This document shows positions 1,459-13,400 of a stretch of DNA of 35,389 bases, piece after piece. The first letter of the stretch is position 1, and each line of letters opens with the position of its first letter. This DNA comes from a virus (taxonomy: Duplodnaviria; Heunggongvirae; Uroviricota; Caudoviricetes): IMG/VR virus record IMGVR_UViG_2563367158_000001. One strand, written 5' to 3'. The translations under genes were made by a program, and so were the position numbers. The notes beneath the pieces were generated by a model. That model had not been told where the DNA came from and searched no databases. It was given only the letters and a program-made list of their open reading frames with translations.

Positions 1459-2622
1459 TTACACATCATTAGTACCTTCCTTATTTCTTGACTGGGACAA
1501 ATTTGGGACCGATGGGTTCAGAATCGAGTCTATTTGCCGTGCGTGTTCGGTAAGGTGATTAGGTGCGAGGTGAGCATATCGACGAACCATTTCGATAGAC
1601 TCCCAGCCTCCCATTTCCTGTAACACTGATAACGGGACTCCGGCTTGAACCAGCCAACTTGCCCAGGTGTGTCTCAAGTCGTGAAATCTGAAATCATCAA
1701 TACCTGCTCGTCTCAGCGCCGCTTTCCAGGCTGTGTTTGCGTCATACCGCATCTTCCTGACTGTTGGCGCTTTCGTTCCGTCTGGTTTGGTACAGCTTTC
1801 CTTATACACAAATACCCAACGGTGATGATTCCCGATTTGTTTTTTCAATACGCGACATGCAGTATCATTCAGCGCAACGCCAATTGCGCGGTTTGATTTA
1901 CTCTCTTCCGGGTTTATCCATGCCACCCGGCGCTGCATGTCTATTTGTTGCCATTCAAGGTTGATGATGTTCGAGCGTCTTAAGCCTGTTGCAAGTGCAA
2001 ATTCAACAACAGACTTTAATGGCTCCGGACATTCATCAATCAGCCTTTGTGCTTCATGAGGCTCCAGCCAGCGGATCCGTTTATTCTTTGGTTGAGGCAC
2101 TTTAATAATTGGTGCCTTATCCAGCATTTTCCATTCACGCTCTGCGGCTCTTAGCAGGGCCTTTATAAATGAAAGATGCGTAGCCTTCGTTGCAACGGAC
2201 GCTGGTTTTGGCGTGTATTCTGGAACAGGTTTCCCTTTTTTTCTGCATGCTTCTGCCCTGAGTTTCCAGTTTTCCTCATGACGCCGGTTCGTCATTTTCT
2301 GCATTGCTGAATAAATTTTTGATTCAGTAATGTCTCTTAGTTGCATTCCTGCGAAATGTTGAAGCCAGAATCCGATCCGGCTTTTGTCATCGTCCAGTGA
2401 TTTTTTATGTGCTTTCTCTTCAAGCCACCTGACACACGCTTCCTCGAACGTTATATCAGGAATTTCACCAAGTTTGCTGACCCGCCATGCTTCAGCCTTT
2501 AGCTTGTCATGGAGTTCTGTCGCCTGCCTTTTGTCCTTTGTTCCAAGAGACTGTTTAAATCTTTTACCGTTCGGCAATGTGAAACTGGCGTACCATATTT
2601 CACCTCTGCGGAAGAGTGACAT
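1459..2622 (-). CDS. int: phage integrase, tyrosine recombinase (P22-type)
   Basis: 387-aa ORF; N-terminus [22 protein letters not shown] and C-terminal [10 protein letters not shown]...RY catalytic region typical of P22-family integrases; adjacent to tRNA. Confidence 0.92.
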
Positions 2623-4465: not shown

Positions 4466-5062
4466 TTAATGATTGTCGTAATAATTAATTGGCTCATCAT
4501 TTTTTTGGTCTGGCATAGTTATGGACCACTTTATATTCTTTAGGCTGTTATGTTTTTTATTGACCTTAAGCTCTCTCTTTGCTTCAGAGATAATATCGTC
4601 TAGTAATACTTTTAATTTATCAAGTCTTGACTTGTGGGCATCTATCAACTCTATACTATCAAACTCCCATTGTATAAATAGATTTTCTTCATTTTCAATG
4701 AATGAACGGATTTTATCCCCACACTCTTCTGTTAAGAATAATGAAGATAGCTCACCTATTCTACTGAGTTTTTCAAGCTCATTAGAGAAAGATTTGCTAA
4801 GGATTTCATTTTCTTCTTTTGATTTGTAACTAAAGTAGGTTGGGAATTGTGAAGCGTGATGTAACTCATGTTTATACCAATAGTCAGCTGTGTTTTTTAG
4901 AAGATAAACACAGTCAACTAATTGCGTATACAAATCTATTCTTTTGTCCCACCATTTTTCTTTATAATAACGGCCGAGTGCATATCGCGCAGTTAAGTAA
5001 GCTGCGATTGAGCCTGTAACAAGTCCGATAATTACCTTTGATATAAGGTCATGCCAATCCAT
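4466..5062 (-). CDS. hypothetical single-pass membrane protein in an AT-rich insertion; candidate exclusion or abortive-infection factor
   Basis: 198-aa ORF; N-terminal hydrophobic helix (IIGLVTGSIAAYLTARYAL) then an aromatic- and Lys/Glu-rich domain; about 30% GC by eye; own terminator; AT-rich leader upstream. Confidence 0.7.
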   Translation of the reverse strand: MDWHDLISKVIIGLVTGSIAAYLTARYALGRYYKEKWWDKRIDLYTQLVDCVYLLKNTADYWYKHELHHASQFPTYFSYKSKEENEILSKSFSNELEKLSRIGELSSLFLTEECGDKIRSFIENEENLFIQWEFDSIELIDAHKSRLDKLKVLLDDIISEAKRELKVNKKHNSLKNIKWSITMPDQKNDEPINYYDNH

Positions 5063-5551: not shown

Positions 5552-6226
5552 TTAGGCTTTGATTTTGTATCTTCTTGGTTTTCCTGAGAAAATCACTGTA
5601 CCAATTATAGAGCAATTACCGTTGATCTTAATGTAAGGCTCAGGCCAGTTTGGGTTTAACGCTTTGAGATAACGCTGTGTCCCATCTTCTATCAACCTTT
5701 TGAAGGTGGTTTCACCTGTATCGTGCATCAATGCAATAACGTCGTCACCGTGGCAGGCAGGTACTTCAGGATCGACAAAAATCATGTCTCCCGGGCGGTA
5801 CTCATCAATCATTGAATCACCTATCACCCGCAAGATATAAGTCATTTCCCCACAGGGGACAGGGCAGGGATACGTTTCTGCTGTGCTCAAATCAACCTCA
5901 GAATATCCAACTTCTTTCCATGCTCCGGCCTGTACCCATGATATGACAGGGACTAATGTGATTTGTTTATTAGTGATTGAAACATCAGGTTTTTTTGTGA
6001 TGTTCGTTGTCTGGTGTTCTTGATCGAGCCATCCGACAGGCAGGTCGAAACATTTTTCGATGTGTCGTGCCATGCTGTCACCGATATTTTTAGTAGCACC
6101 ATCTCCCATAAACCTGCTGGTCTGGGTTGGCTCGCGATCAATCATAGTGGCAAAGGAAGAATTCCCGCCAACACCATCTCTCAGTTTTCTGGCGTTAGAC
6201 CGCCGGATGTCATGGATTGTTTTCAT
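5552..6226 (-). CDS. cI: CI-type prophage repressor (HTH plus S24 LexA-like peptidase domain)
   Basis: 224-aa ORF; C-terminal GDSM...DGD...K region typical of self-cleaving S24 repressors; divergent to cro. Confidence 0.9.
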   Translation of the reverse strand: MKTIHDIRRSNARKLRDGVGGNSSFATMIDREPTQTSRFMGDGATKNIGDSMARHIEKCFDLPVGWLDQEHQTTNITKKPDVSITNKQITLVPVISWVQAGAWKEVGYSEVDLSTAETYPCPVPCGEMTYILRVIGDSMIDEYRPGDMIFVDPEVPACHGDDVIALMHDTGETTFKRLIEDGTQRYLKALNPNWPEPYIKINGNCSIIGTVIFSGKPRRYKIKA

Positions 6227-6241
6227 AACGAAATTAAAACC

Positions 6242-6316
6242 CTTGTACCGTTAAGGTACAAGTATCTTGAAGGTTCATTTCAATCATGTAATATGTACAT
6301 CGGAGGTACATATTGT
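6242..6316. promoter_or_regulatory. OR operator / PR-PRM region
   Basis: 8-bp inverted arms CTTGTACC/GGTACAAG with a 5-bp spacer (6242-6262), a second TGTACA-N5-GGTACA pair 50 bp downstream, and a sigma70-like PR (TTGAAG-N16-TAATAT, 6267-6294) before the cro RBS GGAGG. Confidence 0.6.
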
Positions 6317-6517
6317 ATGAAAGCGTATTGGGACTCTTTAACCAAAGAACAGCAGGGCGAGTTGGCCGGAAAAGTTGGCTCAACACCTGGCTACTTACGG
6401 CTGGTTTTCAATGGCTATAAAAAAGCCAGTTTTGTGCTGGCTAAAAAACTTGAGCAATGCACGTCAGGTGCAATTACGAAATCTGACTTAAGACCGGATA
6501 TCTATCCGAAAGATTAG
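6317..6517 (+). CDS. cro: Cro-like repressor
   Basis: 66-aa product from the ATG 10 nt after GGAGG (internal start of ORF 6014..6517); small basic HTH-like protein divergent from cI. Confidence 0.7.
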   Translation: MKAYWDSLTKEQQGELAGKVGSTPGYLRLVFNGYKKASFVLAKKLEQCTSGAITKSDLRPDIYPKD

Positions 6518-6548
6518 CAGAACACTTTCAATTTTTAACCACAGAACG

Positions 6549-7118
6549 ATGAGGCTAATCGTGGGTAAGCATCACTGGAAAATAGAAAAACAGCCTGAGT
6601 GGTACGTGAAAGCTGTCAGAAAAACTATCGCGGCGTTGCCGGGTGGTTACGCTGAAGCGGCTGACTGGCTCGATGTAACAGAAAACGCTTTATTCAACCG
6701 CCTTCGTGCAGATGGCGATCAGATTTTCCCGCTGGGATGGGCAATGGTTTTACAGCGTGCTGGTGGCACTCACTTCATTGCTGATGCTGTGGCGCAGTCT
6801 GCAAATGGCGTCTTTGTGTCTCTTCCTGACGTCGAGGATGTGGACAACGCCGATATTAACCAGCGTCTGCTGGAAGTCATTGAACAGATCGGCAGTTATT
6901 CAAAACAGATTCGTTCAGCAATCGAAGACGGTGTAGTGGAACCGCATGAGAAGACAGCAATTAACGACGAGCTGTATCTCTCAATTTCGAAGCTGCAGGA
7001 GCATGCAGCACTTGTCTACAAAATTTTTTGCATTTCAGAAAGTAATGACGCCCGCGAGTGTGCAGCTCCGGGCGTCGTGGCGTCGATTGCTTCTGGTTGT
7101 GGAGAAACTAACGCATGA
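6549..7118 (+). CDS. putative CII-like regulatory protein (family not verified)
   Basis: 189-aa ORF at the position following cro; no motif I can assign confidently. Confidence 0.5.
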
Positions 7119-7453
7119 ACAGTTTAACAACACACTACCGTCGCTCGCAACTGATTGCGCTTCCTGTACCGGGTGGAAAAGCGAAGGTGGAATATTGCTA
7201 TGCAGTGAATGTACCAGGTGACAGGGAAATTGTAACCCACAGCTTTGCAGAGTGGGCTGTGGGTGATTTCAACCGGCAGAAGGAGACAGTCCTTTGCGAC
7301 AAGTTAACCGCTGGTTCAAAGATCACTACGGAGTACCCGTCAGAGTCATTCGTTGGGAGCCGGAAACACAACGGGTTATCTACCTCCGCGAAGACTATGA
7401 GCATGAGTGCTTCAGCCCGCTCGAACAGTTTCGTCGTAAATTCAGGGAAATAG
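7115..7453 (+). CDS. hypothetical protein
   Basis: 112-aa ORF filling the gap between the CII-like gene and the replication gene on the operon strand, overlapping the upstream stop. Confidence 0.4.
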
Positions 7454-7462
7454 AGGTCGGTC

Positions 7463-8404
7463 ATGAGCACTAAATTAACCGGCTATGTATGGGATGGTTG
7501 CGCTGCGTCAGGCATGAAATTATCCAGCGTGGCAATTATGGCCCGCCTGGCTGATTTCAGTAATGACGAAGGTGTGTGCTGGCCATCAATTGAAACCATT
7601 GCCCGTCAGATTGGCGCGGGGATGAGTACCGTCAGAACGGCTATCGCACGGCTGGAAGCAGAAGGCTGGTTAACGCGTAAGGCGCGTCGCCAGGGTAACC
7701 GCAATGCGTCGAATGTTTATCAGCTTAACGTTGCGAAGCTTCAGGCAGCGGCATTTTCTCAACTGTCAGATTCTGACCCGTCAAAATCTGACGCATCAAA
7801 ATCTGACCCGTCAAAATTTGATGCGTCGAAATCTGGCAAAAAAGCGGGTTTTCACCCGTCAGAATCTGGCGGGGATCCGTCAGTAAAATCAAAACATGAT
7901 CCGTCAGATAAAAAAACTTCTCGTCCGGACGCTTCGCAACCGGACACGCAGACGGCTGAACAGGAGTTTTTAACTCGCCATCCTGATGCGGTTGTATTCA
8001 GCCCTAAAAAGCGCCAGTGGGGAACGCAGGATGATTTGACCTGCGCACAGTGGCTCTGGAAAAAAATCATCGCCCTGTACGAGCAGGCCGCCGAATGTGA
8101 CGGCGAGGTGGTTCGTCCCAAAGAACCGAACTGGACAGCCTGGGCAAACGAAATTCGCCTGATGTGTGTGCAGGATGGTCGTACTCACAAACAAATCTGC
8201 GAGATGTACAGCCGCGTCAGCCGCGATCCGTTCTGGTGCCGTAACGTGCTCAGCCCGTCGAAGCTGCGGGAAAAATGGGATGAGCTTTCCCTGCGCTTAT
8301 CGCCGTCCGTCAGCACGTACACCGAAAAACGCGAAGACCCGTACTTCAAAGCCAGTTACGACAACGTGGACTACAGCCAGATCCCGGCAGGATTCAGGGG
8401 GTGA
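7463..8404 (+). CDS. replication initiation protein (N-terminal winged HTH, O-like), ori within gene
   Basis: 313-aa ORF; N-terminal HTH (SIETIARQIGAGMSTVRTAIARLEAEGWL); central low-complexity linker encoded by tandem DNA iterons. Confidence 0.75.
   Translation: MSTKLTGYVWDGCAASGMKLSSVAIMARLADFSNDEGVCWPSIETIARQIGAGMSTVRTAIARLEAEGWLTRKARRQGNRNASNVYQLNVAKLQAAAFSQLSDSDPSKSDASKSDPSKFDASKSGKKAGFHPSESGGDPSVKSKHDPSDKKTSRPDASQPDTQTAEQEFLTRHPDAVVFSPKKRQWGTQDDLTCAQWLWKKIIALYEQAAECDGEVVRPKEPNWTAWANEIRLMCVQDGRTHKQICEMYSRVSRDPFWCRNVLSPSKLREKWDELSLRLSPSVSTYTEKREDPYFKASYDNVDYSQIPAGFRG
7763..7837 (+). repeat. origin-like iterons: five tandem 15-bp repeats, consensus about CCGTCAAAATCTGAC
   Basis: Directly tandem copies at 7763, 7778, 7793, 7808 and 7823; three further degenerate CCGTCAG copies to 7914, then an A-rich tract; analogous to lambda ori inside O. 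Confidence 0.65.
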
Positions 8405-8895
8405 TCATGAGTCTTTTGAATGAAGTTCAGAAATACATTGAAGCCCATCCGGGGTGTACTTCCGGAGACATTGCGGATGCTTTTGCAGGTTACTCACGGC
8501 AGCGCGTTCTGCAGTCAGCAAGCAAGTTACGTCAGAGTGGTCGTGTGGCTCACCGTTGTGAAGGGGATACACGCAGACATTTCCCGCGCCTGACTGAGAG
8601 AGCGCAGGAGGCGGAACCGCAACCAGTTCGTGAAACCAGACCTGTGCGCAATTTCTATGTCGGCACTAACGACCCGCGGGAGATTTTGTGCCTGACCCGC
8701 CAGGCGGAAGAACTGGAGTCCAGGGGCTTATACCGTCGTGCTGCAACGGTGTGGATGGCGGCATTCCGTGAAAGCCACTCCCAGCAAGAGCGAAACAATT
8801 TTCTGGCGCGTCGTGAGCGGTGCTTACGGAAAAGCAGCAAGCGCGCTGCATCGGGTGAAGAGTGGTATCTGTCAGGGAATTACGTGGGGGCTTAA
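8401..8895 (+). CDS. PerC-family transcriptional activator homologue
   Basis: 164-aa ORF with the motif AEELESRGLYRRAATVWMAA resembling the PerC/Pch signature. Confidence 0.55.
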   Translation: MIMSLLNEVQKYIEAHPGCTSGDIADAFAGYSRQRVLQSASKLRQSGRVAHRCEGDTRRHFPRLTERAQEAEPQPVRETRPVRNFYVGTNDPREILCLTRQAEELESRGLYRRAATVWMAAFRESHSQQERNNFLARRERCLRKSSKRAASGEEWYLSGNYVGA

Positions 8896-9548
8896 TGAGT
8901 AATAAATATTGCCAGGCGCTGGTGGAACTGCGGAACAAACCAGCTCATGAACTGAAGGAAGTGGGCGATCAGTGGCGCACGCCGGACAACATTTTCTGGG
9001 GAATTAACACCCTGTTTGGCCCGTTTGTTCTGGATCTGTTCACTGACGGTGATAACGCCAAATGTGCCGCGTATTACACGGCGGAAGACAACGCGCTGGC
9101 GCATGACTGGTCAGAACGTCTTGCGGAGCTTAAAGGTGCTGCCTTTGGTAATCCCCCATACAGCCGCGCCAGTCAGCATGAGGGGCAATACATCACCGGC
9201 ATGCGTTACATCATGAAGCATGCCAGTGCCATGCGTGATAAAGGCGGGCGCTATGTTTTCCTGATCAAAGCTGCCACCAGCGAAGTGTGGTGGCCGGAAA
9301 ATGCAGATCATATTGCTTTTATTCGCGGGCGTATTGGTTTTGAACTGCCTGTCTGGTTTATCCCGAAAGACGAGAAGCAGGTACCGACAGGCGCTTTCTT
9401 CGCTGGTGCTATTGCTGTTTTCGACAAGACCTGGAAGGGACCGGCAATCAGCTACATCGGGCGCGATGAACTTGAGGCATGTGGTGAGGCCTTTCTGGCG
9501 CAGGTTCGCCAGCAGGCGGAAAAACTGGTCAGGGAGATGGCGGCATGA
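8895..9548 (+). CDS. phage-type DNA N6-adenine methyltransferase
   Basis: 217-aa product from the internal Met (MSNKYCQALVEL...) with the NPPY catalytic motif (FGNPPYSRA); start overlaps the PerC-like stop (TAATG). Confidence 0.8.
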   Translation: MSNKYCQALVELRNKPAHELKEVGDQWRTPDNIFWGINTLFGPFVLDLFTDGDNAKCAAYYTAEDNALAHDWSERLAELKGAAFGNPPYSRASQHEGQYITGMRYIMKHASAMRDKGGRYVFLIKAATSEVWWPENADHIAFIRGRIGFELPVWFIPKDEKQVPTGAFFAGAIAVFDKTWKGPAISYIGRDELEACGEAFLAQVRQQAEKLVREMAA

Positions 9549-9871
9549 CGACGTTAACTCAATGCCAGCAGCAGGTGCTGGATATGCTGATTTCTTACCA
9601 GAAAGAGCGTGGCTTTCCGCCAACCAATCAGGAGGTGGCAACCATGCTGGGATATCGTTCAGTGAATGCAGCGGTGGAGCATCTTCGCGCACTGGAGAAA
9701 AAAGGCGTCATCACGATAAAGCGTGGTGTGGCCCGGGGGATAACGCTTCATACCGCGGTGAAGGACGACGACAGCGAGGCGGTCGGGATTATCCGCTCAC
9801 TGCTTGCCGGTGAGGAAAACGCCAGGCTGCGTGCAGCCCACTGGTTACATGAGAGGGGTCTGAAAGTATGA
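9545..9871 (+). CDS. stand-alone LexA-like N-terminal DNA-binding domain protein (no S24 peptidase domain)
   Basis: 108-aa ORF; residues about 5-70 align by eye with the LexA winged-HTH (GFPPT..E.A..LG.RS.NAA.EHL.AL..KGVI.I..G..RGI.L); the short C-terminal tail lacks Ser/Lys catalytic motifs. Confidence 0.65.
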   Translation: MTTLTQCQQQVLDMLISYQKERGFPPTNQEVATMLGYRSVNAAVEHLRALEKKGVITIKRGVARGITLHTAVKDDDSEAVGIIRSLLAGEENARLRAAHWLHERGLKV

Positions 9872-10257
9872 AGCTGATTCTGCCTTTCCCGCCCAGCGTG
9901 AACACGTACTGGCGACACCCCAACAAAGGGGCGTTTGCAGGTAAGAGCCTGATAAGCGCGGCGGGGCGCAAATTCCAGAGCGCGGCGTGTGCAGCAATAG
10001 TTGAGCAGTTACGTCGTCTGCCAAAACCAACGTCGGCACCTGCTTCAGTGGAGATCGTGTTGTTTCCTCCGGATAACCGGATCCGCGATCTGGACAACTA
10101 TAACAAGGCGCTGTTTGACGCCCTGACCCACGCGGGTGTGTGGGAAGACGACAGTCAGGTGAAAAGAATGCTGGTGGAGTGGGGACCGGTTATCCCGGAA
10201 GGGAAGGTCGAGATCACTATCAGTAAGTACGAGAAAACGGCGGGTGCAGCCGCCTGA
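9868..10257 (+). CDS. rusA: Holliday junction resolvase RusA
   Basis: 129-aa ORF with the RusA motif DLDNYNKALFDALTHAGVWEDDSQV. Confidence 0.85.
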   Translation: MKLILPFPPSVNTYWRHPNKGAFAGKSLISAAGRKFQSAACAAIVEQLRRLPKPTSAPASVEIVLFPPDNRIRDLDNYNKALFDALTHAGVWEDDSQVKRMLVEWGPVIPEGKVEITISKYEKTAGAAA

Positions 10258-10276
10258 TTAAGAGGAGAAACGAAGT

Positions 10277-11074
10277 ATGAATAATCTGATGGTCATTGAT
10301 GGTATTGAAGTTCGTCGTGATGCTTATGGGCGTTACAGCCTGAACGATCTGCACAGGGCTGCCGGTTCTCTGGATAAGCATAAGCCTGCATTCTGGCTCC
10401 GCAATGAGCAAACTGAGCGTTTAATAAGCGAGTTGCAGATTTGCAACTCGGTCAATATAGAGCCAGTTAACGTTATTCGTGGCGGAAATAACCAGGGGAC
10501 GTATGTCTGCAAAGAACTGGTGTATGCCTATGCAATGTGGATCAGCCCGTCATTCCATCTGAAGGTGATCCGTACTTTCGACATGGTAACCAGCGCACCG
10601 GAAAAATTATCCGGACAGGCTGCTGACAAGATGCAGGCTGGTGTGATTCTGCTGGACTTTATGCGCCGGGAGTTAAATCTGTCTAACTCTTCAGTGCTTG
10701 GAGCCTGTCAGAAACTTCAGGAGGCTGTTGGCTTACCGAATCTGGCACCGCGCTATGCCATTGATGCTCCTGCTGACGCGCCTGATGGCTCAAGCCGCCC
10801 CACGCTGTCACTGAGTGCACTGCTGAAGCAGTATGGTATCCGCCTTACGGCTAATCAGGCATATCACCAGATGGCGAAGCTGGGGATCGTCGAACAGCGC
10901 GAACGATACAGCCGTACAGCGATTAACAACATCAAAAAATTCTGGTCGCTGACAGCGAAAGGCTGCATGTTCGGCAAGAATATCACCAGTCCCGCAAATC
11001 CGCGTGAGACGCAGCCGCATTTCTTCGAATCCCGATTCCCTGAGCTGTTAAAGCTGCTCGATACCGTTCATTGA
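10277..11074 (+). CDS. KilA-N domain protein (anti-repressor-like)
   Basis: 265-aa ORF; N-terminal KilA-N-type region (IDGIEVRRDAYGRYSLNDLHRAAG...KPAFWLRNEQTERLI). Confidence 0.75.
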   Translation: MNNLMVIDGIEVRRDAYGRYSLNDLHRAAGSLDKHKPAFWLRNEQTERLISELQICNSVNIEPVNVIRGGNNQGTYVCKELVYAYAMWISPSFHLKVIRTFDMVTSAPEKLSGQAADKMQAGVILLDFMRRELNLSNSSVLGACQKLQEAVGLPNLAPRYAIDAPADAPDGSSRPTLSLSALLKQYGIRLTANQAYHQMAKLGIVEQRERYSRTAINNIKKFWSLTAKGCMFGKNITSPANPRETQPHFFESRFPELLKLLDTVH

Positions 11075-11075
11075 G

Positions 11076-12071
11076 GTGACCGTGAGAGCACTACTGACCC
11101 CTGAAATTGCCCCGCGTATGGGGATCGTATTGTTCAGACCAGGTTCAGAGCTGATGCCCCTGTTTATGCAGGGGCGTGTCCTGCTGGAGCCTGAGCCGGA
11201 ACGTTATTCATCTTTCGCCAGTGGTGCTGTTCCGGCGGCATCACAACCGCTGGCGGATGATCCTGACGTTCGGGCCGTGTTCCGCAATGAGGCAGTGATC
11301 CGTCGTGCTGGTGGCGTGGAATGTCTTGAAAGCTGGTTACTTCGTGAAAAAGGCTGCCAGTGGCCTCATTCCGACTGGCACAGCGAGAATATGACAACAA
11401 TGCGACACGCGCCGGGCGCAATCCGTCTGTGCTGGCACTGCGATAACCAGCTGCGCGATCAGTTCACGGAACGGCTGGAATCAATGGCAACGGATAACTG
11501 TGCCCGCTGGGTGTTGTCTGTTGTGCGTCGGGATCTCGGTTTTGATGATAGTCACGTTGTGACAATGCCGGAACTGTGCTGGTGGCTGATTCGTAATGAC
11601 CTGGCGGATGCCTTACCGGAAAGTGCAGCCCGTAAGGCACTGAGATTACCGAAGCCTGTTGTGCCGTCTGTCACCCGGGAAAGTGACCTTGTGCCTTCGG
11701 TTCCTGCCACCAGCATCATCCAGGATAAGGTGAAAAAGGTGCTGGCGCTGAAAGTGGATCCGGAGTCGCCGGAGTCTTTTATGTTACGCCCAAAACGTCG
11801 CCGCTGGGTTAATGAAAAGTACACACGCTGGGTTAAGACACAGCCGTGTGCATGTTGTGGAAAGCCTGCTGATGATCCCCACCACCTGATAGGCCACGGT
11901 CAGGGGGGAATGGGTACAAAAGCGCATGACCTCTTTGTGTTGCCTTTGTGCAGAAAGCATCACGACGAGCTGCATGCGGATACCGTGGCATTTGAAGAGA
12001 AGTATGGTTCCCAGCTGGAGCTGATATTTCGTTTTATCGATCGTGCGCTGGCAATAGGCGTACTGGCGTAA
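11076..12071 (+). CDS. DUF968-family protein (YdfU-like, HNH-like Cys/His motif)
   Basis: 331-aa ORF with GTG start; C-terminal CACCGKPADDPHHLIGHGQGGMGTKAHDLFVLPLCRKHHDELH. Confidence 0.6.
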   Translation: MTVRALLTPEIAPRMGIVLFRPGSELMPLFMQGRVLLEPEPERYSSFASGAVPAASQPLADDPDVRAVFRNEAVIRRAGGVECLESWLLREKGCQWPHSDWHSENMTTMRHAPGAIRLCWHCDNQLRDQFTERLESMATDNCARWVLSVVRRDLGFDDSHVVTMPELCWWLIRNDLADALPESAARKALRLPKPVVPSVTRESDLVPSVPATSIIQDKVKKVLALKVDPESPESFMLRPKRRRWVNEKYTRWVKTQPCACCGKPADDPHHLIGHGQGGMGTKAHDLFVLPLCRKHHDELHADTVAFEEKYGSQLELIFRFIDRALAIGVLA

Positions 12072-12084
12072 GTGGAGAACGAGC

Positions 12085-12837
12085 ATGAACCTTGAAGCCT
12101 TACCGAAATATTACTCCCCGAAATCTCCAAAACTGAGCGATGACGCACCGGCGACAGGCTCTGGTGGTTTAACGATTACGGATGTGATGGCTGCGCAGGG
12201 GATGGTGCAGTCGAAAGCACCGCTTGGGTTTGCCTTATTCCTGGCAAAAGTTGGTGTTCAGGATCCTCAGTTTGCGATTGAAGGTCTGCTCAATTACGCG
12301 ATGGCACTGGATAACCCGACATTGAATAAATTGAGTGAAGAAACCCGGCTACAGATCATTCCTTACCTTGTGAATTTTGCCTTTGCTGATTATTCCAGGT
12401 CTGCGGCAAGTAAGGCTCGCTGTGAGCATTGTGCTGGTACTGGATTTCATAATGTATTGCGCGAGGTGGTGAAACACTCCAGAAGCGGGGAATCTGTTAT
12501 CAAGGAAGAGTGGGTGAAGGAACTATGTCAGCATTGTCATGGTAAGGGAGAAGTCAGCACAGCGTGCAGAGGGTGTAAGGGTAAAGGTATTGTCCTGGAT
12601 GAAAAAAGGACCCGGCTTCATGGCACGCCTGTTTATAAGATTTGTGGGCGTTGCAATGGAAACCGGTTTAGCCGTTTACCAACTACACTGGCACGACGTC
12701 ATGTCCAGAAGCTGGTTCCAGACCTGACTGATTATCAGTGGTACAAAGGATATGCAGACGTAATTGATAAACTAGTAACAAAGTGCTGGCAGGAAGAAGC
12801 ATATGCTGAAACGCAATTGAGAAAGGTGACGAGATAA
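12085..12837 (+). CDS. late-gene antitermination protein Q
   Basis: 250-aa ORF with CxxC zinc-binding motifs (CEHCAGTG, CQHCHGKG, CRGCKGKG, CGRCNGN); directly upstream of a terminator and the lysis cassette. Confidence 0.7.
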   Translation: MNLEALPKYYSPKSPKLSDDAPATGSGGLTITDVMAAQGMVQSKAPLGFALFLAKVGVQDPQFAIEGLLNYAMALDNPTLNKLSEETRLQIIPYLVNFAFADYSRSAASKARCEHCAGTGFHNVLREVVKHSRSGESVIKEEWVKELCQHCHGKGEVSTACRGCKGKGIVLDEKRTRLHGTPVYKICGRCNGNRFSRLPTTLARRHVQKLVPDLTDYQWYKGYADVIDKLVTKCWQEEAYAETQLRKVTR

Positions 12838-12944
12838 GTGATTTTCGCCGAAGATGGCGACATGAAGCTTGCATTTTTCAAAAAATATGGATAAGATTTT
12901 CTCAACGATGGGCTTTGTATGTCTGCCGTTGATAATTTTCACGA

Positions 12945-12970
12945 ACCCGCTGTTGAGCGGGTTTTTATTT
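12945..12970 (+). terminator. tR'-like intrinsic terminator downstream of Q
   Basis: ACCCGC-TGTTGA-GCGGGT hairpin followed by TTTTTATTT. Confidence 0.6.
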
Positions 12971-13358: not shown

Positions 13359-13366
13359 ATATCAAT

Positions 13367-13400
13367 AATAAAGGCCGTAACGAACGGCCTTTATTATTAT
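13367..13400 (+). terminator. rho-independent terminator
   Basis: Perfect 11-bp stem AATAAAGGCCG / CGGCCTTTATT with a 7-nt loop, followed by ATTAT. Confidence 0.65.

Follow-up and report, generated by a model that had tools for sequence, protein, structure and literature searches.

A stand-alone LexA-type DNA-binding protein in the delayed-early operon of an SfV/SfII-like lambdoid prophage

What use might a phage have for the DNA-reading head of LexA once the self-cleavage domain is gone? The question is raised by a gene at positions 9545–9871 of the Caudoviricetes record IMGVR_UViG_2563367158_000001, the whole of which (35,389 nucleotides) is hereinafter called the window. Its 108-residue product, hereinafter the window protein, is a winged helix-turn-helix (wHTH) of the LexA type and not LexA proper: it has neither the S24 peptidase domain nor a conserved cleavage site. 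The parts of the gene, with the evidence for each in brackets, are the following:

9545..9871, plus strand: LexA-like gene, 108 residues, stop codon included (open reading frame list, Pfam LexA_DNA_bind, PHROG 362)
9545..9751, plus strand: wHTH, codons 1–69, with recognition helix 40–52 and wing 56–68 (AlphaFold2, Foldseek, kept residues)
9752..9766, plus strand: acidic flexible linker, codons 70–74 (predicted local distance difference test, pLDDT, below 50 at 71–74 in both structural models)
9767..9868, plus strand: two-helix tail, codons 75–108, with helices 75–88 and 93–102, a proposed oligomerisation module (pLDDT about 90, conservation, substitution rates)

The LexA-type head and its helical tail

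The initial annotation, made by eye, read the product as a LexA wHTH that ends without the Ser/Lys dyad of S24 peptidases, and left the assignment to be decided by a profile search. It is borne out by Pfam, NCBIfam and fold comparison alike. The Pfam LexA_DNA_bind model (PF01726) aligns to residues 1–65 over its full length (model positions 1–65 of 65) with E 2.9e-19 and 69 bits (cutoff 23.7). TIGR00498, the lexA equivalog of NCBIfam, scores 70.8 bits, under its cutoff of 110.95, and aligns only over model positions 1–91 of 203; because the match stops there, the S24 half is absent, and the Pfam search likewise returns no Peptidase_S24 match anywhere in the 108 residues. In a phmmer search of the PDB the top match is LexA of Escherichia coli (the N-terminal domain 1lea and 3jso, E about 1e-15), to which the protein is 43% identical over 90 residues by BLASTP (E 1e-21), with no indel across residues 1–69, such that the two share identical numbering in this region. 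The PHROG 362 profile covers the entire protein (residues 1–108 on positions 1–106 of 106, E 1.4e-59). As it lacks the S24 Ser/Lys dyad, the window protein cannot be inactivated by RecA-stimulated self-cleavage. Against profiles of defence systems it gives only a marginal match of the wHTH type, to CARF3 (E 3.6e-4).

The resemblance to LexA runs somewhat beyond the head. HMMER places residues 77–90 on the hinge and cleavage loop of LexA and A88-G89 on the scissile bond A84-G85, and in the alignment L87-A88-G89-E90 pairs with A83-A84-G85-E86 of LexA. This match suggests descent from a full LexA that was truncated just past the cleavage site. We considered the remnant as a functional site and rejected this, as G89 is replaced by K or N in close relatives, the A-G pair is absent in remote ones and there is no protease.

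Two AlphaFold2 runs, based on alignments of 13 and 22 sequences (mean pLDDT 77.9 and 83.7, respectively), yield the same architecture: a wHTH with helices 6–22, 28–35 and 40–52 and strands 56–58 and 66–68 forming the β-hairpin wing (56–68), a disordered linker at 71–74 with pLDDT below 50, and thereafter the helices 75–88 and 93–102 with pLDDT about 90. The predicted template modelling score of 0.56 is consistent with two parts on a flexible hinge. Foldseek superimposes residues 1–68 of the model on DNA-bound E. coli LexA (3jso) with a root-mean-square deviation of 1.5 Å at 51% identity, the range over the matches to 3jso and 1lea being 1.5–1.8 Å. The nearest viral models in BFVD are many short proteins of tailed phages, tectiviruses and one mycobacteriophage, named as "LexA repressor DNA-binding domain-containing"; thus, the stand-alone LexA head is a widespread phage architecture.

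The tail (codons 75–108) has no match in Pfam. Nevertheless, the length class is the same in close relatives (65–97% identity) and in remote ones at 39–51% identity (P0125, P0126, P0129, P0131, P0137, P0159, P0172, P0207 and P0220), and the relatives have its hydrophobic pattern in common, with A97 and L101 invariant and A93 nearly so in a 22-sequence alignment (A5). Across 65 distinct alleles of one subfamily, the ratio of nonsynonymous to synonymous substitution rates (dN/dS) is 0.20 for codons 1–70 and 0.19 for codons 71–106. Purifying selection thus acts on head and tail alike, and the tail is a genuine part of the protein that selection maintains. Since two helices of only 14 and 10 residues are too short to enclose a core by themselves, we infer that the hairpin packs against that of a second copy, which would make the window protein a dimer.

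The contact residues of LexA considered here were drawn from reviews. E. coli LexA makes its direct readout of CTGT mainly through S39, N41, A42 and E45 (PMC11442139); a contact list based on nuclear magnetic resonance, as cited in PMC13416735, adds E44; and R52-K53 at the end of the recognition helix is reported to be important (PMC4807011). The window protein keeps S39, N41, A42, E45, K53 and the wing residues R64-G65-I66, has K52-K53 at positions 52–53, and has V in place of E44. Among 146 diverged loci from viral contigs, S39, N41, K53, R64, G65 and I66 are kept in every one and A42 in 142, and position 45 is occupied by E in 53, D in 57, A in 27, S in eight and T in one. Judged by these alignments, the core of the LexA reading head is fixed across the family and position 45 varies between alleles. 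Given the kept CTGT-reading residues, occupancy of SOS boxes by the window protein is plausible.

Operon, distribution and evolution of the gene

The gene lies between two others with which it shares its boundaries:

8895..9548, plus strand: dam, phage Dam N6-adenine methyltransferase, upstream gene (Pfam Dam, E 7.8e-46; start coordinate taken from the annotation of AP012536)
9532..9536, plus strand: Shine-Dalgarno sequence GGGAG, 8 nt before the ATG of the LexA-like gene (read from the sequence)
9868..10257, plus strand: rusA, RusA Holliday-junction resolvase, downstream gene (Pfam RusA, E 6.1e-15)

At 9545–9548 the ATG of the LexA-like gene overlaps the stop codon of dam in an ATGA, and at 9868–9871 a second ATGA joins its own stop codon to the ATG of rusA, both read directly from the sequence. 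Through these overlaps its translation is coupled to that of dam and rusA within the delayed-early operon. On the plus strand, promoter prediction yields no sigma-70-like site from 6200 to 10258; lacking a promoter-like site of its own and being translationally coupled, the gene is therefore expected to be expressed only with the delayed-early (pR, nin-region) transcript. Hence, it would be expressed in lytic growth or just after infection and be silent in the lysogen.

The initial annotation treated the gene as a discovery, which does not hold: dozens of phage records and thousands of genomes already carry an annotation for it. A 2.7-kb block (8400–11100) is 95–99% identical in 44 phage records, and a protein at least 95% identical occurs in about 50, including SfV (orf42, "unknown"), SfII ("LexA DNA binding domain protein"), SfIV, mEp460 and cdtI, as well as the Shiga toxin (Stx) phage Stx2a_1447 ("repressor, lexA family"; Stx2a_1447_18) and 15 Stx2c phages; annotated proteins of Stx2a_1447, 1720a-02 and vB_EcoM-689R6 are 100% identical. 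Under the label "LexA family transcriptional regulator", the gene is found in 2233 of 5426 complete E. coli genomes (41%), in up to four copies per genome. PHROG 362 is labelled "transcriptional repressor", and a pham of this kind (pfam01726, 15 phages) appears, uncommented, in a comparison of Stx phages (PMC8136144). By its sequence, then, the window protein belongs to PHROG 362, a family that was annotated before, and the existing names are computational. What we add to them are the conservation of the helical tail and the selection on it, the core of S39, N41 and A42 that stays fixed while positions 44 and 45 vary, the coupling to and long-lived linkage with rusA, the alternative tails in the slot before rusA and the absence of SOS boxes from the phage.

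The age of the rusA linkage emerges from three remote subfamilies in IMG/VR (80, 11 and 56 loci), the members of which are 41–61% identical to the window protein. In these subfamilies 77 of 78, 2 of 10 and 37 of 55 loci, respectively, have the LexA-like gene immediately before rusA, at a distance of no more than 30 nt, the remaining loci having an insert of 270 bp or about 700–800 bp before rusA. At the same remote loci RusA is 67–78% identical to that of the window, Dam about 66–78% and the DUF968 protein 50–66%. The linkage is specific to one RusA lineage, as the classical RusA phages HK75, HK140, HK542 and HK633 (about 40% identity) have no LexA-like gene under or beside the match. In eight loci (L084–L091) a 158-residue protein (at 5001–5477 of L084, for example) occupies the slot immediately before rusA. 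It has the same head, matching LexA_DNA_bind with E 1.6e-19; the C-terminal remainder, some 88 residues long, is unrelated and matches nothing in Pfam. Thus, the LexA head is the constant element of the slot before rusA.

The LexA-like gene is constrained, yet it is the fastest-changing member of this conserved block. Nucleotide similarity between the window and the diverged loci runs through dam to about 9521, is lost, and is back at 9865–9868, where rusA starts. Against the loci L002, L082, L084, L104 and L136, the divergent segment (9521–9868) is sharply bounded within a block of 65–77% nucleotide identity. The dN/dS of the gene is 2.5-fold higher than that of rusA, which may account for most of the additional divergence; alternatively, alleles may have been exchanged as cassettes.

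Other arrangements of the head were encountered among the relatives. Tandem LexA_DNA_bind domains occur in one chain in P0132 (222 residues) and P0148 (352 residues), and P0155 combines LexA_DNA_bind with a 6-pyruvoyl-tetrahydropterin synthase domain; the proteins grouped under this observation are P0132, P0133, P0148, P0152, P0153, P0155, P0156 and P0160. Those with tandem domains could be single-chain pseudo-dimers of the LexA head. Four proteins of 168–185 residues (P0021, P0092, P0098 and P0120) match both Dam (PF05869) and LexA_DNA_bind and probably arose from deletions or frameshifts fusing the overlapping dam and LexA-like frames.

Taken as a whole, the window represents a lambdoid prophage of the SfV/SfII type whose late genes are of the myovirus type. 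Its left end (1–1254) is host DNA with a proA-like open reading frame of the aldehyde-dehydrogenase family, followed by an attachment site of the thrW type, as used by SfV/SfII-like phages, in which tRNA-Thr(CGT) precedes the prophage integrase; a search for RNA families found only this tRNA gene. The other landmarks are:

1369–1444: tRNA-Thr(CGT), attachment site
1459–2622, minus strand: integrase
5552–6226, minus strand: CI with S24 domain
6549–7118: CII-like protein
7463–8404: O-like replication protein with iterons
about 8407–8895: PerC-like protein
10277–11074: KilA-N protein
11076–12071: DUF968/HNH protein
12085–12837: Q antiterminator (Pfam Antiterm)
12943–12964: tR'-like terminator

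Several of these regions have features of their own. The stretch just before dam (8401–8895) codes for a homologue of the PerC family of transcriptional activators (E 2.1e-9), PerC/Pch proteins being regulators of virulence genes in pathogenic E. coli. The KilA-N protein shows a weak match over 38 residues to the candidate defence profile PADLOC PDC-S22 (E 4.6e-6). Palindromes CTTGTACC-N5-GGTACAAG and TCATGTAATATGTACATC/GAGGTACATATTGTATGA between cI and the rightward genes (6242–6320) are probably OR operators, and repeated GTCAnAAT(C/T)TGAC palindromes inside the O-like gene (7765–7827) are probably origin iterons. An imperfect inverted repeat with 27 nt per arm at 4869–4932, inside a minus-strand open reading frame with no Pfam match (4466–5062), contains CTGTGTTT-N10-AAACACAG. 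Terminator-like hairpins are about three-fold enriched between 6200 and 13500 (21 as compared to 7.1 ± 3.0 in shuffles), and a perfect hairpin with 15-nt arms lies at 13364–13398.

Operators and competing explanations

If the window protein reads SOS-type sequences, do these lie in the phage itself? The window holds no exact CTGT-N8-ACAG, and its 18 one-mismatch versions are not above chance (11.3 ± 3.4 expected). A position weight matrix derived from 21 SOS boxes of E. coli gives a best score of 10.8 in the window, as compared to 13.3–27.4 for real boxes and a mean maximum of 11.4 in shuffles. No arrangement of CTGT and ACAG is enriched in the window at spacings of 0–20 in either orientation. 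The inverted repeats between 2600 and 14500 are mostly OR operators, origin iterons and terminators, and none is linked to the LexA-like gene. The initial annotation, which had seen no canonical SOS box in the window, is upheld on this point by both the pattern and the matrix searches. With no SOS-type boxes in the prophage, it follows that the operators, if LexA-type half-sites are read, lie outside of it.

We posit, as our best though tentative reading, that the window protein is a dimeric, RecA-insensitive surrogate of LexA, made with the delayed-early genes, which reads half-sites of the CTGT type and exerts its effect at SOS-box-like operators that lie outside the phage. On this proposal, a gammaproteobacterial LexA would have lost its S24 self-cleavage domain and gained a helical hairpin of about 35 residues. 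The result would be a small DNA-binding regulator produced only with the delayed-early (pR, nin-region) operon after infection or induction, in which the hairpin would dimerise the protein and the unchanged S39, N41, A42 and E45 would let it bind CTGT-type half-sites. It would target the SOS boxes of the host, or genes under LexA control on co-resident elements. As activated RecA could not remove the surrogate, it might hold or restore repression while the host LexA undergoes cleavage. The proposal builds directly on the domain identity, the absence of the protease, the conserved tail, the operon position, the kept contact residues and the lack of SOS boxes in the phage. The N-terminal fragment of LexA still represses unless ClpXP removes it (PMC11442139), and since it does, a stable stand-alone domain could plausibly repress too. 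There is also precedent in the nin region for the mimicry of a host DNA-binding protein, namely NinH of lambda, a mimic of Fis (PMC7166090).

Several points weigh against such a surrogate. The putative dimerisation module is unrelated to the C-terminal domain of LexA, and the half-site spacing may hence differ from 8 bp. In the 146 diverged loci position 44 is never E, and E45 gives way to A, S or T in 36 of them. The LexA-like protein has fallen to 41–51% identity where RusA holds 67–78%, and in one subfamily its dN/dS is 0.20 as compared to 0.078 for rusA; such faster evolution than the neighbours is unlike what would be predicted for an invariant host target. GIL01 gp6, the only characterised phage protein of such an architecture, reads a sequence other than that of the host LexA and acts as an activator (PMC6182141). 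Finally, a search of the literature found no functional study of the enterobacterial LexA-like protein.

A more far-reaching version of the surrogate reading, which we offer as speculation and consider unlikely, is that SOS-box promoters are re-silenced during lytic growth by a surrogate that RecA cannot cleave, encoded by a prophage gene of about 41% of complete E. coli genomes, the Stx2a and Stx2c phages included. The outcome would be that the host SOS response and the LexA-controlled genes of competitors are shut, or that newly made CI is protected in lysogenisation, with the alleles at positions 44 and 45 tuned to variants of the box. The competitor genes meant, if this were true, would be colicin-lysis operons, LexA-controlled antirepressors of other prophages and SOS toxins. 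More generally, the SOS response drives the induction of Stx and other lambdoid prophages, and if so common a gene brought LexA-type repression back after induction, then in pathogenic E. coli and Shigella SOS mutagenesis, the release of colicins, the rivalry of prophages and possibly the yield of toxin phages would be affected. The LexA DNA-binding head would then also have been reused by phages a second time, independently of GIL01 gp6.

The chief competitor of the surrogate is a phage-specific transcription factor, activator or repressor, with an operator in the phage that is unrelated to the host SOS box, as in the case of gp6. We hold this to be somewhat unlikely, and if the protein were such an ordinary regulator its interest would be local to the biology of SfV-like and lambdoid phages. 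It gains from gp6 itself, a LexA DNA-binding domain alone, which is 44% identical to the LexA of its host, binds GaCACAnnTGTGaC and activates transcription (PMC6182141). It would also account for the variation of positions 44 and 45 of the recognition helix between alleles, for the filling of the slot before rusA by alleles with different tails, and for the faster divergence with a break in homology exactly at the gene borders, a pattern also seen for specificity determinants. However, no candidate operator presents itself, as the inverted repeats between 2600 and 14500 are explained by OR operators, iterons and terminators, no CTGT/ACAG arrangement is enriched and the LexA-like gene has no adjoining intergenic region. 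Moreover, with a Q antiterminator and a tR'-like terminator (12943–12964) present, a late activator is seemingly unneeded, and S39, N41 and A42 are fixed across alleles (A42 in 142 of 146). The base-reading residues, being strictly conserved, favour sequence-specific over structure-specific binding, which counts against a different kind of role that we regard as improbable: that of an architectural or targeting DNA-binding partner of the RusA resolvase or the Dam methylase rather than a transcription factor. The tight and old linkage to rusA (adjacent in 77 of 78, 2 of 10 and 37 of 55 loci), the overlapping start and stop codons, and the precedent of NinH as a small dimeric DNA binder of the nin region (PMC7166090) would fit such a partner. 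Nevertheless, the linkage is confined to one RusA lineage, HK75, HK140, HK542 and HK633 having no LexA-like neighbour, and synteny in mosaic phages may be mere inheritance.

Two further explanations start from the relationship to LexA itself. The initial annotation suggested that the protein might act as a dominant modulator of host LexA, which would involve mixed dimers of a dominant-negative kind. LexA dimerises through its C-terminal domain, and nothing of this domain is present past the cleavage-loop vestige. The idea thus goes unsupported and is very improbable: what speaks for it is the sequence relationship to LexA with the vestige L87-A88-G89-E90, in which the A-G pair is not conserved, position 89 being K or N in close relatives and the pair being absent in diverged ones. 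Scarcely credible is a functionless, decaying fragment of a captured lexA gene. Although the protein resembles LexA truncated just past the cleavage site, this explanation is already contradicted by the data on selection and conservation: relatives as distant as about 40% identity keep the length and the tail, head and tail each have a dN/dS of about 0.2, the gene is intact in 41% of complete E. coli genomes, and it has a good Shine-Dalgarno sequence and coupled translation.

Comparison with known systems

With the N-terminal domain of E. coli LexA (1lea, 3jso) the window protein shares the wHTH fold, the CTGT-reading residues, K53 and R64-G65-I66. It differs in having no S24/dimerisation domain and neither Ser119 nor Lys156, with a two-helix tail instead, and in the exchanges E44 to V, R28 to N and R7 to C in the window allele.

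A parallel in architecture is gp6 of the Betatectivirus GIL01, in which a LexA DNA-binding domain, encoded by the phage in an early operon, likewise stands without a cleavage domain (PMC6182141). It switches on the late promoter P3 by binding a palindrome located there (PMC6182141), which indicates that the architecture can serve as a working sequence-specific regulator. In contrast to the window protein, gp6 has 66 residues and no tail, has changed its specificity and is an activator of transcription. No suitable palindrome for a gp6-like operator at the late promoter was found in the repeat and spacing searches, for which the operator sequence was not predefined, and no promoter equivalent to P3 was seen. 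BLASTP returns no alignment between the two proteins at E <= 100; thus, they represent independent captures from different host LexA lineages, the sequences placing the origin of the window protein in a gammaproteobacterial LexA and that of gp6 in the Bacillus lineage.

The N-terminal fragment of LexA (residues 1–84) is similarly a LexA DNA-binding domain alone. Its specific binding is weakened, and its degradation by ClpXP is needed for full SOS induction (PMC11442139). It differs from the phage protein in being short-lived and without a dimerisation element, whereas the latter has the conserved tail and the C-terminus …GLKV. With this ending, the phage protein would presumably lack the C-terminal degron exposed on the LexA fragment.

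NinH of lambda offers a parallel from the same genomic region: it, too, is a small nin-region protein that reproduces the DNA-binding part of a DNA-binding protein with a global role in the host, and it works as a homodimer (PMC7166090), as the window protein would if it dimerises as predicted. NinH differs in belonging to the Fis-type HTH fold family and in binding and bending DNA with low specificity (PMC7166090).

Lastly, the proteins gathered in PHROG 362 and under the RefSeq name "LexA family transcriptional regulator" (SfV orf42, SfII, Stx2a_1447_18) are the window protein's own family, with 95–100% identical members in more than 50 phage records, and nothing sets it apart from them. The match to the 106-position profile over the full length, the two-helix tail and the nin-region place before rusA are all features that the window protein has in common with this family.

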